In this document: positions 21,933 through 34,934 of the stretch, piece by piece
How the letters are laid out: the number at the start of each line of letters is the position of its first letter
Numbering within the stretch: the stretch's first letter is position 1
Source: Candidatus Helarchaeota archaeon
GTDB lineage: Archaea; Asgardarchaeota; Lokiarchaeia; Helarchaeales; RDOG01
Assembly (NCBI GenBank): GCA_019058315.1
Contig: JAHPZH010000005.1
Coordinates: forward strand, 64,001-128,000
Direction of reading: 5' to 3'
DNA length: 64,000 bases
Notes under the pieces: generated by a model
Seen by the model: the letters and a program-made list of their open reading frames with translations, nothing else
The model's database searches: none
What the model was told of the DNA's origin: nothing
Made by a program: the position numbers and the translations under genes

Positions 21933-22451
21933 TTGGAGAAAATAATTTATAAAATTCTTTTATTAGGTGATCCTGGAGTAGGTAAAACAGCTCTTATAAC
22001 TCAATATATTGATAATAGATTTATAACTGATTATAAAGCCACTCTTGGATTTGATATCTTTATCAAAAAAATTATAGGATCCAAAGCAGAATTTTCATTA
22101 GCAATCTGGGATCTCGCGGGACAAGAGAAATATACATCCTTAAAACAATCATATTATGAAGGTGCCCAGGGAATTATTATGGTATATGATGTAACAGACC
22201 GAGAAAGCTATAAAAATATAATACAGTGGTTAACAGAATTGCAAAAAGTAGTAAAAACAATTCCTATTATGTTAGTAGGAAATAAAATTGATTTAACTGA
22301 CGAAATTAAAATCAATACAGAGGATGGGCAACGACTTAAAACAAGAATTAAAGCAATTAATTTTTATGAGACTTCAGCAAAAACTGGACATAATGTTAAT
22401 ACAATTTTTGAAGAACTTGCAGATATTATTAATAAACATTCATCGATATAG
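21933..22451 (+). CDS. Rab-like small GTPase
   Basis: G1 GDPGVGKT, switch I DYKATLG, G3 WDLAGQE, G4 NKID, G5 ETSAK; no C-terminal prenylation Cys. Confidence 0.95.
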   Translation: MEKIIYKILLLGDPGVGKTALITQYIDNRFITDYKATLGFDIFIKKIIGSKAEFSLAIWDLAGQEKYTSLKQSYYEGAQGIIMVYDVTDRESYKNIIQWLTELQKVVKTIPIMLVGNKIDLTDEIKINTEDGQRLKTRIKAINFYETSAKTGHNVNTIFEELADIINKHSSI

Positions 22452-27894: not shown

Positions 27895-28932
27895 TCACCT
27901 CAAAAATTTTTGTAACAACTCTTTCATACTCTTCGGAAGTTGTCCATTAGATTCTAAATCTAAAATAAAATCTTCTACAAGATCTACTTGGCTTAGTGCT
28001 ATGGCAACAATGAGGTCTGGAATGTCTGGAGTATTTTCCAGCATAAAATGTTCTCCTTGCGTGATATTTGCAATTTCTTTAAAGATTTTTTCAGTTTTAC
28101 TATCTTTTACAATTTGTATAGTGTAAACTTTAACCTCATTAGAAGCTAACTTTTTTGATTCTTCTCTCCAATTCAATTTCTTTGGACATTGGGAAGGATC
28201 GTGTGGGGGAGCGTCCGCGATTAATATTGCGATCTTTTTAACATTTACCCATTGAAAATCTTGAAGAGAGCTTAATGCATCCTCAACCGCCTCTGGAATA
28301 TCTCCCCCACCATCTGCAGTCCATTCCTTTATAAAACTTGTTAGTTCTGAATAATATTGGGATTCTGTAAACGGGTAACATTTTAGTAAATAAGAACTTT
28401 CTTCGTCACAATGATCACGATAGGTTAAGGCACCAATTCGAACTCCTGGAATTTTTTCTGATAGAAAGTAAAGCATTCTAGCAATTTCCTTTTTTATGGC
28501 CCCAAGAGCAGATCCCATAGAACCTGTAGAATCAGCCACTACAACTAAGTCAAGCATTCCTAAAGATTCAATCTTTTCTTTTATCATTCTACACATATCT
28601 TTGTCATTTAAAGATTCCATAAAAGCTAAAGCTCGTTGATAAGCCTTGTAAGCATAACCCATCTTTTTTATTGATTCAAATTCTCTAGCAGCCTGTAACA
28701 TTGTTTTTCCGGCTTTTTCAGGTTCTCCTTGTTTATCTTGTAATGATGCTATCGAAACTAGAGTAATTACGGCTTGTAGCTTTAGATTTCGATTAATAAA
28801 TGTTTCACGTAATTTCATATAATTATTAATAGCTTTTTTCCAAGCTTTATTTTCCATTTTCAGGCAAATTTTATCCGAAATCGCTTTCAATTCATACTCA
28901 ATTTCACTTAACATTCCATTATCACAATCCAA
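27895..28932 (-). CDS. TPR/SNAP-like + vWA domain protein (paralogue 2)
   Basis: MIDAS DSTGSM, 'YRDH', 'GGGDIPEAV', 'IADAPPH'; N-terminal 'AYKAYQRAL'. Confidence 0.85.
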   Translation of the reverse strand: MDCDNGMLSEIEYELKAISDKICLKMENKAWKKAINNYMKLRETFINRNLKLQAVITLVSIASLQDKQGEPEKAGKTMLQAAREFESIKKMGYAYKAYQRALAFMESLNDKDMCRMIKEKIESLGMLDLVVVADSTGSMGSALGAIKKEIARMLYFLSEKIPGVRIGALTYRDHCDEESSYLLKCYPFTESQYYSELTSFIKEWTADGGGDIPEAVEDALSSLQDFQWVNVKKIAILIADAPPHDPSQCPKKLNWREESKKLASNEVKVYTIQIVKDSKTEKIFKEIANITQGEHFMLENTPDIPDLIVAIALSQVDLVEDFILDLESNGQLPKSMKELLQKFLR

Positions 28933-28936
28933 GGAA

Positions 28937-29965
28937 TCATATTAATTCTTTAAGGAGCTCCCTTTTACTTTCTGTGAGTTTTCCTTCAGATTCTATATCA
29001 ATAATAAAATCTTCTGCTAAATCAAATTGATGTAATGCTATTGCTACGATTAGATCTGGTAAATCAGCTGTGTCGGATAAAAGAAAAGATTTTGATTCTG
29101 TTATCCTAGCAATTTCTTTGAAACTTTCTATAGTTCTCACATCATTACCACAAATCACAGAATAAACTTTTATTTCATCATTTGCTAATTTTGCAGAAAT
29201 TTTTTTCCAGTCTAATTTATTAGGACATTTTTCAGGGGGGTGTGGGGGTTCATCAGCTATTAATATTGATATTTTTTTAACAGATTCCCATTCGTAACCT
29301 TTTTGAAGGTAGTCTAATGCGTCTGCAACTGCCTCACCACCATCTCCACCCCCACCATCAGGCACCCAGCTATCTACAAAAGAAACCAATTTGGCTATTT
29401 CAGAAGATACTTGTTCAATGAATGGTTGAGCTTTAATCAGATAAGAAGTATTTTCGTTACAGTGGTCTCGGTAAGTTAAAGCACCTATACGAATGCCTGG
29501 GATTTTATCTGACATCTTATATAGCATTTTCGCTATTTCTTTTCTAATAGAATCAAGACCACTTCCCATCGATCCTGTAGAGTCGATCACAATTACTAAA
29601 TCTAGCATTCCGAGAGATTCTATTTTCTGCTGAATATTTTTTACTTTACCAATTTGATCACATGATATCATAAGGTCTAGAGCTCTTTGATATGCCTTGA
29701 ATGCATAACCCATTTTTCTATGTTCTTCGAATTCATTAGCAGCACTTAACATAATATTTCCAGCTTTTTCGACCTGACCAATCGTTTCTAACAACGAAGC
29801 AATACTCACAAGCGTTAAAGTGGCTTGAGAGTTTAATTTAGCTTCAAGAAAATGCTCACGTATTCTCTCATAGTCTTTAATTGCAACGATCCAAGCTTTA
29901 TTGCACATATTAAAATGAATTTCTTCTGATAATGTATTCATTTCATATTCTATTTCTTTTAGCAT
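28937..29965 (-). CDS. TPR/SNAP-like + vWA domain protein (paralogue 1)
   Basis: DSTGSM, YRDH, GGGGDGGEAV, IADEPPH; collinear with 27895-28932. Confidence 0.85.
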   Translation of the reverse strand: MLKEIEYEMNTLSEEIHFNMCNKAWIVAIKDYERIREHFLEAKLNSQATLTLVSIASLLETIGQVEKAGNIMLSAANEFEEHRKMGYAFKAYQRALDLMISCDQIGKVKNIQQKIESLGMLDLVIVIDSTGSMGSGLDSIRKEIAKMLYKMSDKIPGIRIGALTYRDHCNENTSYLIKAQPFIEQVSSEIAKLVSFVDSWVPDGGGGDGGEAVADALDYLQKGYEWESVKKISILIADEPPHPPEKCPNKLDWKKISAKLANDEIKVYSVICGNDVRTIESFKEIARITESKSFLLSDTADLPDLIVAIALHQFDLAEDFIIDIESEGKLTESKRELLKELI

Positions 29966-29981
29966 TTTGAATTACAGACCT

Positions 29982-32900
29982 TTACTCTATTTGGAGTATA
30001 TTTACTGAAGAGTTTGCTCTTAAATCTACATTATACATTGGATAACCCACCGTCTCCTTTACAATTATTTCTCCCGGTTTTGTTGCAGTCATATTATAAG
30101 TTAAGGTTATTGATCCATCCAATTCATTTAGATAAAGATTCAATTTGTCACTAGTTAATTTATATGATGTGATTTGATATTCTTCCACCAGTTTCTTTAA
30201 TGATTGTTCCACAACTAAAAAACCAGCGGGGATAGGTTCCTCTATTGCAAACATTCCCTGTTTTTCGGTTGTTGTTATATTAAGTTTAACACTTATGGAA
30301 TCATTCTGTGCAACTTTATTTGAACTGAAATCTCTTGTTATTGTTAACATTTTGGGTTTTAGAAGATATTCTTTAGGATACCATGCTTCTATTGTTAAAT
30401 CGTACACTAATAAGCCCTCACCATTCTTTTCTAATATCAATTTATTTTCAGAATTTAGATTATCTAACGGAATATTTCTCATATCATAAACAATATGTTC
30501 TAAAGTGTCTTCATTTACTTCGAATTCTCCTATTACCTGTTTATTAAAAATTGCCTGTGTTAGAAAATTCGTTTTTTCGCTTCTTGCGCAATTAGAAAGA
30601 CAAAGAATAGCGGCTATAGTATCTGATGTTGTACTCCATCCACCACCTTTAGCGCGATTAGCCATAATATAATTTAAGACCCTTTGAACATTTACTGGAT
30701 CTCCTCCTGCAATATTTAAAGCTAGTGCAGCATAAGCTGTAGATTCAACTTTTCCAGCTAGTGATGAACCAACGTCCCAATAGACGAAATCGCCTTCATT
30801 ATGAGCTGATGTATTTAATTTTTCTATAAGGAGGTTCAATTCCTTATTGTATTTATTTGACCCTTCTTTAATGATGTCGATTATTAAATAGGCTAATAGG
30901 TTTGGGTCGTTCGTTCTCTTTGAGGAGAGGATAGCGTTTGATATAATATTTTCTAAAGCTTTGTCAATAATTTCTTGATTTACGTTATATCCAGCTTTTT
31001 TAGCCTCGAGTAATGCTTGTATAACATACGCTGTACAGAAGTCTTTCCCTCGTCTATTTGATTCCCAAGTCCCTTGAGAAGTTTGTATTTTCTTTAATTC
31101 TTCTATTGCAGCATTAATTAGTTTTTTTTCTATAAAAAATCCCGAGTTAATTGTATAAGCCAAACCAAACAATACATAGGCTGTAGTGAAAGGCTCTGAT
31201 TGCTCATTTCCCCAATATCCCCAACCACCACGGTCATTTCGAAGACTTATTAATTGTTGAATACCCTTAGTTGTCATTTCTTCAAATTGTTCTTGGAATT
31301 TGTTAGTAAGCATATTATTTTCTTTTAGCAGATTGTAAACTAGAACGTTAGGTAAAAATTTCGACATAGTTTGTTCTACACAACCATGAGGATATCCTAA
31401 TATCGATTCTAATCCATCCATGCAACCCATTTGATAACCAGGTATCAATGAAAGGCGTGCTTTATAAAAAATTGCGTCTCTTGGTATAGTTGGAGATATA
31501 TTAATAATTTCATCTTCCAAAATAAGTCCCGTATATCTGAAAATATGAGGTTCTCCTTTAGGATTTATTTTTATTTTTTTTCTTAAGACATCAATATGCT
31601 TCGGTGTTTTAGCTTCGATCCAAAATGTCGCCTCACCTGGATTAATTGCTTTCAATTTGAAATCGAGACGTTTCATCCCATTTGCAGGAACGAGAATATT
31701 CCCTTTCGGTATGTCAACTTTTAATTTATATTTATCAGCATTTAAATTAACGTTACATTCTAAGTTTTCTTTTGTTAGATTTGTCAAAATTATTCCAAGT
31801 TGAATATTATCTCCATGAGTTAAAACTGGTGGGATATCAAGTTTTGCAAAAAAATCTTGTTTAACTGTAATTCTATGAGTTCCCATACCTATCTCACAAT
31901 CTTTTGTACTTGCAAACACTGTCAACTCATGACTTGTTATCTGATCTGGTAGCTCTGTTTCTAGCATAGATTGACCATCTGATTCTAGGAATGGAATCCA
32001 AAGAGATGTTTCTGGGAAATTGAATCGAACACTGACCATAGATATTGGGTTTACTGAATCAGTTAAAATTAAACCTAATTTTGCACCCGGCGTACTAGAA
32101 CCCCCAAAGCATCTATGAACAACACTTGGACCGCTTGATTTGCCAGCGACTGAATAAAAACCATAACCTGAACCTGAACTTGTGGTAATACCAATTGTTC
32201 GTTTATAATCCTTAGTGAAAGATCCTCCCCTTAACATCAGCGCTTCTTCTCCAATATAATATTCACGTGAATAATGTTCGACATCGGTCATAATTGACAT
32301 ATATTTTGGATACCCTACTATAGTGGGAAGCACAGAACGAGGACCATCTTCTCCTGCAAAACCCGCATAACTAAAATTCGATCCTAATTCCAAACAGATG
32401 GGGTTTCCTTTTGGATCTTTGTATACTTTCGGTTTTACCTTTTTGAGAGATTTGAATTTTATATCAATTTTTTGAATAAATTTTTGTATTTGCCTTTTAG
32501 AATCACTCTTTATCAACATTTCATTAAGAACTGCTTTTATTTCGTTTGTAAGGGGAGAATCTTTTGTACAAATTGTATTAAAAATCCTTTCGCTAATATT
32601 AATTAAACATTCATCTTCTTGTTCCTTTGTAATATGACCCTCTTTTGATAACTGATGAATATCTGTAACTATTTCTTGATACAAATCAATATTATTATCA
32701 TCGATTTGGCTTATCTCATCTTCTGCAGCTATCATTAAGATGTTATTATCATTTACTAGAATCAAACTTTCAGAAATAATTTTTAAAATATTATAAATGA
32801 GAGTTTTACTGTTTTTTTCTTTATTTTTTTCTGCAATTTCTTGAATAAGTTCAATTATTTTCCTCTTTACAAGCCTATGATTAACATCTTGTATCATCCC

Positions 32901-34934
32901 AGCTTTCTTTGTAATTCTTAGAAATTCAAGCCCTGTACCAACTAACTTAGGATTGAGATAAATATAGTGAATTAGTGCATCTAATAGTGCATTAAAATAT
33001 GGTCCATATTCTTTTGTATCCCAACTCAATATTTCTGAATTATTTTTCTTGATAAATTCCTTTTTAAAAAATATTTCTAATGGAGTTTCAATTTTTCGTC
33101 CTAATTGGAGAACAGATGCATCAACTAACATAGCACCTAAGCAGCATGCTATAGCTTTATCATCTTGTAATATTTTAACTTGAAAATTAGCCTTATTACC
33201 GGGTTGATAAGTGCTTTTATCACTTTCAATATCAATTTTTAGCTCTTTTCTCTCAGGATTTACGTAAATCTTTCTTTCATTTTTTTCTAGGATACCATTT
33301 GATCTAAAAGCATATGTTATAACTTTTAAATTACCCCACATCTTTCTAGTGATTGGAATTTTAAAATCCGCCGTTCCCTCAGTTGCAAGCTTCACTGTTC
33401 TATAAATTATATTCTCCTTCTCGATATCGACATAGATAGGAATATTCTCCCTATCAACAACTGCATTTAAATGTAAAAAATCGTTAATATTTAAGCTAGG
33501 GGATTCTATGTTTGTATTAAGCCATATTTTTGGGTTTTCTTTTTCTCCTTCTTTCTGCTCTTTTTCTTCTTTTATTACTGCTTTTTCAACAGTCAGTCCT
33601 TTGCGGACTGTTTTGGATTCATCTAATAATTCCGATTCAATCATGATATTAATATCAAAATTCTTCTTTTTCTCTGTAGGATAATCAATTTCAAAAGTTA
33701 AGGGACATCTTCCTTCATTATCTGTTTTTGCTACTTTGAATTTTGCATGGTGTTTCAGCTCAGTATCATTTATCGAAGCTAAAACAAAACACTCGTTTAA
33801 TGGGACTTTTTTATTTTCTAGGGTTGGAACTTCTGTTTTAATTATTACTTCTGCTTGTTGACCTGGTTCAATACTTCTCGCCATATCTGTTGTTACGATC
33901 AAAGCTTGCTTTACTGTGCTAATTTTTATTTCCTTATTAGCTTTGCGTTTTAAACTGTCAGTAAGTTCAAATATAATTTTAGATTCTCCCTCTTTCATTT
34001 CAGGAACTTGGAACCTATAAATATATTCTCCTTTTTCATCTGTTTCCCCATAAGTTTGGAGAATTTGTTTATTTTCTGGTGATATAATTTCAATTTTAGC
34101 ATTGGCTTTTTTCACGGGTGCTCCGTAAAAATATTCGGACTTTAATTCGAGTCTAAATTCGTCCCCTATTTTTAGATATTCTGGTTCACATTTTACTTTC
34201 AATTCTATGTCTGGTGGTTGATAATTCTCGATTTTAATTGATTTTTCAGATTTAAAACCTTTAACCGAAACTTTAACTTTATAAACTCCTTCTATTGCCT
34301 CTTCAGCTATTGGAATTTGAAGTTCTCCTATCCCAAATTTAGAATCACATGAAATTTTTCTAATAAGTATCCTATTATTTTGTGGATCAGTTAATGTTAC
34401 TTTAATAGGCTCTTGACTTGGTTGATAAGTACTTCCTAACAGTTTCCAAAGGATAAAACGAATAAGTATCCTCTGTCCTGGCATGTAATAATCACGATCT
34501 GTAATCATATAGCATATATATTCTTCCTCTTTTCTGGTAAGATCCAACCTCAAAGTTTTTTCTTTTCCATCAATTTTAACCTTAATTTCATAAAATTTAT
34601 ATTCAGCATCAAATTCAAATTCCAATGAACCTAAATTATCTGTTAATCCCTTAAAAACAGTTTTATTGCCGTTGATCAACTTTACTTTACAATTAATGGG
34701 AAAAAAGTTCTGATCCATACAAATAATACGGCCAGAAATTTTCTCACCTTCTTCGAACTCCGAATTCATTTTAACAAAAATAAGTGGGGGTTCCCTTAAA
34801 TTCGAAATTTGACTGATCAGACTTTGAACTTTCTCAACATCTATTGAAGTTATTTGATTAAGAATATCCACATCAAGTTTATCTTTTTCTTTAATATTGA
34901 GGAGCCTTTTTAGTTTTTTACATGTTGTATCCAA
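29982..34934 (-). CDS. Alpha-2-macroglobulin/thioester-containing protein without signal peptide; expanded bait region contains actin and GTPase fragments
   Basis: 'TDRDYYMPGQ', 'YFYGAPV', 'SDKSTYQPG', 'LVDASVL', 'RFNFPETSLW', thioester GYPHGCVEQT (CVEQ 31371-31382), 'VESTAYAALA', 'GGWSTTSDT', 'EEPIPAGF'. Confidence 0.92.
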   Translation of the reverse strand: MDTTCKKLKRLLNIKEKDKLDVDILNQITSIDVEKVQSLISQISNLREPPLIFVKMNSEFEEGEKISGRIICMDQNFFPINCKVKLINGNKTVFKGLTDNLGSLEFEFDAEYKFYEIKVKIDGKEKTLRLDLTRKEEEYICYMITDRDYYMPGQRILIRFILWKLLGSTYQPSQEPIKVTLTDPQNNRILIRKISCDSKFGIGELQIPIAEEAIEGVYKVKVSVKGFKSEKSIKIENYQPPDIELKVKCEPEYLKIGDEFRLELKSEYFYGAPVKKANAKIEIISPENKQILQTYGETDEKGEYIYRFQVPEMKEGESKIIFELTDSLKRKANKEIKISTVKQALIVTTDMARSIEPGQQAEVIIKTEVPTLENKKVPLNECFVLASINDTELKHHAKFKVAKTDNEGRCPLTFEIDYPTEKKKNFDINIMIESELLDESKTVRKGLTVEKAVIKEEKEQKEGEKENPKIWLNTNIESPSLNINDFLHLNAVVDRENIPIYVDIEKENIIYRTVKLATEGTADFKIPITRKMWGNLKVITYAFRSNGILEKNERKIYVNPERKELKIDIESDKSTYQPGNKANFQVKILQDDKAIACCLGAMLVDASVLQLGRKIETPLEIFFKKEFIKKNNSEILSWDTKEYGPYFNALLDALIHYIYLNPKLVGTGLEFLRITKKAGMIQDVNHRLVKRKIIELIQEIAEKNKEKNSKTLIYNILKIISESLILVNDNNILMIAAEDEISQIDDNNIDLYQEIVTDIHQLSKEGHITKEQEDECLINISERIFNTICTKDSPLTNEIKAVLNEMLIKSDSKRQIQKFIQKIDIKFKSLKKVKPKVYKDPKGNPICLELGSNFSYAGFAGEDGPRSVLPTIVGYPKYMSIMTDVEHYSREYYIGEEALMLRGGSFTKDYKRTIGITTSSGSGYGFYSVAGKSSGPSVVHRCFGGSSTPGAKLGLILTDSVNPISMVSVRFNFPETSLWIPFLESDGQSMLETELPDQITSHELTVFASTKDCEIGMGTHRITVKQDFFAKLDIPPVLTHGDNIQLGIILTNLTKENLECNVNLNADKYKLKVDIPKGNILVPANGMKRLDFKLKAINPGEATFWIEAKTPKHIDVLRKKIKINPKGEPHIFRYTGLILEDEIINISPTIPRDAIFYKARLSLIPGYQMGCMDGLESILGYPHGCVEQTMSKFLPNVLVYNLLKENNMLTNKFQEQFEEMTTKGIQQLISLRNDRGGWGYWGNEQSEPFTTAYVLFGLAYTINSGFFIEKKLINAAIEELKKIQTSQGTWESNRRGKDFCTAYVIQALLEAKKAGYNVNQEIIDKALENIISNAILSSKRTNDPNLLAYLIIDIIKEGSNKYNKELNLLIEKLNTSAHNEGDFVYWDVGSSLAGKVESTAYAALALNIAGGDPVNVQRVLNYIMANRAKGGGWSTTSDTIAAILCLSNCARSEKTNFLTQAIFNKQVIGEFEVNEDTLEHIVYDMRNIPLDNLNSENKLILEKNGEGLLVYDLTIEAWYPKEYLLKPKMLTITRDFSSNKVAQNDSISVKLNITTTEKQGMFAIEEPIPAGFLVVEQSLKKLVEEYQITSYKLTSDKLNLYLNELDGSITLTYNMTATKPGEIIVKETVGYPMYNVDLRANSSVNILQIE

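Follow-up and report, generated by a model that had tools for sequence, protein, structure and literature searches.

Organization of the locus

The window, by which we mean the whole 64,000-nucleotide stretch of DNA analysed, belongs to a genome of 5.8 Mb (30% GC) that encodes a Lokiactin-type actin (L001) and two more actin-family genes, namely a 570-aa actin-related protein and a truncated paralogue. The same genome (G000) contains 117 small-GTPase-like ORFs and 23 roadblock/LC7 domains. The locus of interest encodes an A2M-family thioester protein, P0001, together with VWA proteins and an N-truncated actin (Table 1), and this A2M-VWA-N-truncated actin operon is kept in four orthologous loci. 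The two VWA genes of the window, which lie between the A2M and truncated actin genes, encode helical-repeat plus VWA proteins, an arrangement that recalls the pairing of C3b with factor B (VWA).

P0001 matched the Pfam HMMs for MG2 (PF01835), A2M_BRD (PF07703), A2M (PF00207), TED_complement (PF07678), and bMG10 (PF17973) above cut-off and in the canonical order of the A2M/thioester-containing family, with the bait-region domain at aa 494–611, the A2M domain at aa 976–1064, and the thioester domain at aa 1172–1447. The thioester motif has the CxEQ pattern of the family, and its Gly, Cys, Glu, and Gln are invariant across the aligned family members (7/7). Approximately 350 residues sit between the bait-region domain and the MVSVRFxFPETSLW segment, arranged as a helical domain followed by an actin piece and a 62-residue linker (aa 904–965). 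The studied stretch thus occupies the classical bait position, between A2M_BRD and FPETSLW. The linker resembles a bait in its position upstream of FPETxxW, its hypervariability (see below), and its richness in Ser, Gly, Thr, and Pro, which make up 52% of its residues compared with 21% of the whole protein.

The helical insert matched no Pfam family and is placed where complement proteins have their anaphylatoxin domain. A structure model of aa 590–1075 was confident for this insert only, with pLDDT values of about 25 even in the flanking MG domain, and is therefore uninformative on disorder of the linker. P0001 looks cytoplasmic: as judged by eye, the N-terminal 60 residues of P0001 and of its orthologue P0005 are rich in charge, and neither a signal peptide nor a lipobox nor a hydrophobic run is present among them.

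Table 1. Features of the A2M-actin locus, with positions in the window
Feature	Residues of P0001	Position	Strand	Basis
A2M-family thioester protein P0001, 1650 aa		29982–34934	minus	Pfam, translation
Helical insert, ~230 aa	612–841	32412–33101	minus	AlphaFold2 helices, pLDDT 80–94
Actin N-terminus and D-loop piece	842–903	32226–32411	minus	Pfam Actin, 26.8–30.9 bits
Rab-type switch I look-alike GSFTKDYKRTIG	904–915 (G904–G915)	32190–32225	minus	PSSM, proteome matches
Ser/Gly-rich spacer with GYGFYSVAG	916–933	32136–32189	minus	10-mer scan at null level
Actin C-terminal look-alike SGPSVVHRCF	934–943 (S934–F943)	32106–32135	minus	Nonamer search
TPGAKLGLILTD	948–959 (T948–D959)	32058–32093	minus	Not roadblock; possible faded GTPase YYxGAxGxxLV remnant
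Start of post-bait MG domain, MVSVRFxFPETSLWIP		31992–32039	minus	Invariant in orthologues; Pfam A2M from aa 976
Thioester motif GCVEQ	1184–1188	31371–31385	minus	Alignment
Two paralogous VWA genes directly downstream of the A2M gene		27895–29965	minus	ORFs; one VWA gene in orthologous loci
N-truncated actin paralogue, 308 aa		26962–27888	minus	Pfam Actin positions 64–408; alignment A4
Rab-like GTPase of the window, comparator of the original prediction		21933–22451	plus	ORF; seed of the GTPase collection

A split actin shared between the bait and its neighbour

The actin piece is 67% identical over 61 aa to the organism's own actin, and its last 30 residues differ at only 3 positions. Over the corresponding 30 codons, pN is 0.10 and pS is 0.76 relative to the own actin gene. 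In L077, the strands on either side of the D-loop have degenerated, yet the D-loop itself is nearly perfect. This retention, together with the low pN and saturated pS, indicates that the sequence itself is under selection and not the fold alone. The L077 protein (L077:3127-8568) is a distant, 1813-aa family member with degenerate actin strands and a perfect D-loop, GYPKYTSIMTDV; its truncated actin is encoded upstream, not downstream, of the A2M-family gene.

The truncated actin of the window begins exactly where the bait actin piece stops. In two distant lineages (L036:7740-8759 and L077:2073-3092) the break point is shifted, and the bait piece and the partner actin are still complementary. 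Judged from these alignments, the locus encodes a naturally split actin whose two halves are co-evolving. The truncated partner is without the phosphate-2 and adenosine motifs.

A model of the complex placed only residues 4–43 and 58–65 of the bait fragment (fragment numbering) in contact with the truncated actin, with an ipSAE of 0.91 compared with 0.00 for the best of three controls. Runs agreed in at least 71% of contacts, and the pLDDT of the partner was at least 49. Of 80 solved complexes, 58 attained the mark set for such models, as did 2 of 110 mismatched pairs; these figures apply only roughly here, since our own alignments were supplied. Neither the D-loop nor any part of the linker belongs to the confident interface. 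A predictor that has learned solved actin structures can pass a split actin on that account, and the model therefore shows likeness rather than binding; the truncated pseudo-actin probably docks on the bait actin piece. The last residues of that piece, LMLRGG (32223–32240, minus strand), resemble the tail of ubiquitin. A ubiquitin-tail mimic was considered and rejected, as LRGG occurs in P0001 and P0008 only, the other orthologues have LGAGG, and LRG is native to actin.

A switch I island in the linker

The original prediction had described the linker as a string of mini-mimics of host proteins following the actin piece, and the three peptides that it named were found in frame and exactly where it had placed them on the minus strand. 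To score the proposed switch I mimic, a position-specific scoring matrix (PSSM) was built from 69 Rab/Ras-like domains of the same genome, and its 11-column windows were slid over the linker. SFTKDYKRTIG scored 18.8 bits, the best of 159 windows and a score reached by none of 300 shuffles. The PSSM window giving this score is switch I itself (consensus KFEEDYKPTIG). Among 1.64 million non-GTPase ORF positions of the genome, no position reached 16 bits, and in a leave-one-out comparison 28% of the genuine own GTPases scored below the bait peptide, which thus lies within the range of the 69 genuine GTPases and above every non-GTPase ORF. An independent scan, in which 10-mers of aa 900–968 were compared by BLOSUM score with the six-frame proteome against a shuffled-window null, gave only GTPases as top matches at aa 904–909. 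The resemblance to switch I, as originally proposed, is confirmed to be beyond chance.

The Rab-like GTPase of the window, to which the peptide had first been compared, does show the similarity (6 of 11 positions), and other own GTPases match better (8 of 12). Even the best own GTPase genes share only 24–25 of 36 bases with the island, which is therefore not a fresh copy. The Ras-superfamily G1 P-loop, G3 DxxGQ, and G4 NKxD motifs are absent around it, and the full GTPase HMM aligned over nodes 29–42 only; applied to the linkers, this HMM aligned its switch I nodes alone and with weak scores. A Pfam search with aa 890–975 returned nothing, and no GTPase family, at E-values up to 10.

A look-alike of the actin C-terminus

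The second island, GPSVVHRCF, is identical at eight of nine positions to the end of the own actin, GPSVIHRCF, and conforms to the actin C-terminal pattern GPS[VI][VI]HRCF. When the own-actin nonamer was searched against 2.8 million six-frame positions, the only exact match was actin itself and the only match with a single mismatch was the bait, with all other positions at three or more mismatches. In the BLOSUM scan, SGPSVVHRCF scored 40–51 against a null of 29–37. Tails of the type [VIA][IV]HRCF were present in 46 of 49 fetched Asgard actin tails; in the Freyarchaeota/Jordarchaeum clade the actins have AIHRCF at their end. The original assignment of this peptide to the actin C-terminus is thus borne out, and the resemblance is confirmed as far beyond chance. 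The codons differ from those of the actin gene at synonymous sites (pS 0.65; AGT against TCT for Ser, for example). As synonymous sites are saturated while the amino acids are kept, we reject the idea that the actin gene was recently copied here by gene conversion or was misassembled into the locus.

The remainder of the linker

The third proposed mimic, a roadblock motif at TPGAKLGLILTD, did not hold up. With a PSSM built from 23 own Robl/LC7 domains, its best window scored 5.5 bits, a chance-level value reached at 1.7 per 1000 proteome positions. No Robl protein was among its top proteome matches, none of which rose above the shuffled-window level. The same PSSM gave KDYKRTIGITT 12.6 bits against the N-terminal helix, which we put down to the small size of the profile and regard as noise, given that this segment matches GTPases far more strongly. 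GYGFYSVAG, suggested as a possible further mimic, likewise gave no proteome match above shuffled controls. Of the predicted string, then, switch I and the actin tail beat their controls, whereas TPGAKLGLILTD and GYGFYSVAG did not.

Weaker signals in the linker point back to a GTPase. A BLAST alignment to one own GTPase extends from switch I to the β4 strand, suggesting that TPGAKLGLILTD corresponds to GTPase YYKGADGALLV; in the GTPase window it scored 1.7 bits (p ~0.08 for the linker), and in alignment A3 it falls under GGVAYMIG, which follows RYYRG in P0005. The VAGKS of the spacer is faintly DxxG-like (block B2, 2.6 bits). TPGAKLGLILTD is at best possibly a faded GTPase YYxGAxGxxLV segment. 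A colinear test was made with three blocks, namely switch I, LIWDIAGQEK, and LYYKGADGALLV. The second and third of these beat 996 of 1000 shuffles in P0001 (p ~0.004, post hoc), and comparable values were obtained for P0005, P0006, and P0007; since the blocks were picked after the alignment had been seen, this result is a lead only. The proposed fragment order, switch I followed by a faint DxxG and then YYxGA/β4, is clearer in the Freyarchaeota/Jordarchaeum clade. The linker thus does carry short host look-alikes, but the switch I island is probably not the independent cassette that had been envisaged and looks instead like the portion best preserved from a single GTPase fragment with an internal deletion.

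Turnover of the linker among orthologues

Five orthologues that keep the P0001 architecture were identified in a large protein set, with 59–65% identity over the C-terminal two-fifths (aa 976–1650). The closest relatives are labelled Lokiarchaeia, Freyarchaeota, and Jordarchaeum, which places the host among the Asgard archaea, and more distant family members have 29–33% identity. A close orthologue was absent from the genomes of 40 relatives. Searching the large protein set with the studied region returned P0001 alone, a search for shorter fragments was negative, and a DNA pattern search of metagenomes returned the Freyarchaeota locus alone. Where inspected, the close members and the distant P0009 and P0011, which have the actin piece, are without a signal peptide. 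Two other distant members, P0012 and P0013, have a hydrophobic N-terminus and no actin piece, several hydrophobic helices replacing the helical/actin insert, from which it follows that the cytoplasmic actin-bait form may derive from a membrane-associated one.

Identity to P0001 peaks at 77% in the D-loop-to-LRG segment and is lowest, at 16.5%, in the linker, the pattern expected of a bait. A tree of the six proteins separates P0001, P0008, and P0004 from P0005, P0006, and P0007. The first group has the actin-tail-like peptides GPSVVHRCF, GSDVVHESF, and GPEIVHRSC, and the second has the GTPase-like DYKRSIGAD (13.5 bits), SIGVD, and SIGID. DYKRSIGAD is paired with RYYRGG, and SIGVD or SIGID with YY[KR]GG; RYYRGG and IYYKGG are similar to YYRGA, a motif that follows switch II. 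Switch I is absent in P0004 and P0008, the actin C-terminus is absent in the Freyarchaeota/Jordarchaeum clade, and P0001 alone combines a switch I island with an actin tail in which both are strong. A comparison of orthologues for gain or loss of such segments, which the original prediction had put forward as a check, thus shows that the sets differ and that islands were gained or lost between these proteins. The non-consensus Arg of DYKR[ST]IG is common to P0001 and P0005, across the deepest split, with 3 synonymous differences, which argues for common descent and retention over two independent captures. The sample on which selection on the islands can be judged is these six close orthologues, too few for rigour.

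The 10-mer scan of the orthologue linkers against the proteome of this genome gave no other convincing host look-alikes. In the P0006 linker (L086:1100-1220, Freyarchaeota), GGGSTEVAGI resembles GGGATEIAGL in two 289-aa ORFs of this genome, with a BLOSUM score of 44, near the top of the null range.

Possible roles of the islands

A2M proteins are cut by their prey in the bait, and C3 is cut after its helical anaphylatoxin domain; we take the P0001 linker to correspond to these positions. We propose, giving it a little under an even chance, that P0001 is a thioester trap set off by proteases and that the islands and the D-loop serve in it as decoys to be cleaved or recognized. The islands and the exposed D-loop would decoy enzymes that attack actin and small GTPases, the simplest candidates being proteases of viruses or competitors. 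A cut in the linker would trigger an A2M-type rearrangement, exposing the GCVEQ thioester so that the attacker could be trapped or marked. In its simplest form the model would be a trap in the cytoplasm, baited with copies of surfaces of the cell's actin and Rab proteins. GtgE cuts switch I of Rab32 after the glycine of TIG (PMC5752668), and grimelysin cuts actin between Gly42 and Val43 in the D-loop (PMC7311988). The position, composition, and hypervariability of the linker all fit the decoy or tripwire role, recording the targets of enemies, that was originally suggested. Several points count against it. GtgE uses a large interface, and a peptide outside its fold may escape enzymes that read a folded GTPase. 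We know of no precedent for a thioester trap working in the cytoplasm. In addition, the islands are not universal among orthologues, and colinear GTPase remnants fit with the simple insertion of a gene fragment.

The islands could instead be neutral relics, the slowest-decaying leftovers of an inserted small-GTPase fragment and an actin 3′ end in a linker kept for its length and flexibility. The colinear order of switch I, AGxx, and YYxGA/β4 in P0001 and the Freyarchaeota/Jordarchaeum clade speaks for such an origin, as do the loss of switch I from two orthologues, the lack of the actin C-terminus in three, and the unalignable remainder of the linker. Simple decay sits poorly, however, with a switch I island that has lost its neighbours and still reaches the score of a genuine GTPase, with an actin nonamer that keeps 8 of 9 residues despite diverged synonymous sites, and with the persistence of DYKR[ST]IG across the deepest split with 3 synonymous changes; we consider neutral relics unlikely. 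Retained sequence could also reflect docking, with the islands and D-loop recruiting host partners to the A2M/split-actin complex for cytoskeletal or trafficking regulation; candidates would include the actin barbed-end cleft, profilin-like proteins, GTPase effectors, GAPs, and roadblock partners. A docking role would explain why no part of the protein is more conserved than the D-loop, why the operon with pseudo-actin and VWA proteins is kept, and why the split point co-varies with the bait piece in three lineages; the predicted assembly of the split actin also fits it. Binding motifs would nevertheless be expected to be conserved rather than swapped among orthologues, the thioester and full A2M trap architecture are strictly conserved, and the site is the bait position, so that docking appears quite improbable to us. 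Chance resemblance of a low-complexity linker to abundant protein families accounts for TPGAKLGLILTD versus roadblock and for GYGFYSVAG, but the shuffles and the proteome-wide null distributions exclude it for switch I and the actin C-terminus; as an explanation of the islands it is very unlikely indeed.

If the islands are decoys, integrated-decoy sensing and thioester trapping would already have been combined in archaea related to the eukaryotic ancestor, and the actin D-loop, the actin tail, and Rab switch I would be named as targets of Asgard-directed enzymes. What attacks the Asgard cytoskeleton and GTPase network would then become testable, with the bait as a substrate for capturing the enzymes. 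A broader reading, which we offer tentatively and think rather doubtful, is that Asgard archaea have a thioester sensor of the complement/A2M type inside the cell, and that its bait, assembled from pieces of the cell's actin and of Rab switch regions and changing in evolution, acts as an integrated-decoy immune trap. The pieces in question would be the D-loop shown on the split pseudo-actin, the actin C-terminal tail, and the Rab switch regions. An immune trap of this kind, if true, would report which cytoskeletal and trafficking proteins Asgard viruses or competitors attack, and would do so in the lineage from which eukaryotes arose. Under the rival readings too, the coupling of a thioester protein to a naturally split actin makes for an unusual architecture, and our literature search found no paper on an Asgard A2M with actin in its bait.

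Comparison with known systems

P0001 shares its domain order, CxEQ thioester, and TED with A2M and the bacterial A2Ms (ECAM, YfhM). In those proteins a flexible, hypervariable stretch before FPETxxW springs the trap when cut, and the P0001 linker has the position and hypervariability of such a stretch. Unlike these proteins, P0001 has no visible signal peptide or lipobox, its bait of ~350 aa includes segments of host actin and GTPase along with a helical domain, and its operon pairs it with VWA proteins and a truncated actin instead of Pbp1C. The helical insert lies at the same site as that of complement C3, C4, and C5, in which the activating cut falls between the insert and the xFPExWLW segment (α′NT) and the partner is, as here, a VWA protein (factor B). 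The insert of P0001, in contrast, has three times the size and no sequence relationship, no protease domain of a convertase is encoded beside the VWA, and the setting is apparently intracellular.

As in protease tripwires, such as the linkers of NLRP1 and CARD8, and in the integrated decoys of plant NLR-IDs, a putative sensor here would carry copies of the host sequence targeted by a pathogen, and the putative decoy segment turns over rapidly. In those systems attack on the copy triggers defence, an activity that in P0001 is inferred only; the chassis is a thioester protein rather than an NLR, and the host is an archaeon. Lastly, the switch I island resembles the substrates of GtgE (Rab32) and RRSP (Ras) in its F-x3-Y-K-x-T-I-G pattern, the Thr and Gly of which flank known cut or modification sites. 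Unlike Rab32 and Ras, the island is no GTPase: it has only 11 residues and is devoid of the P-loop, DxxGQ, and NKxD motifs.
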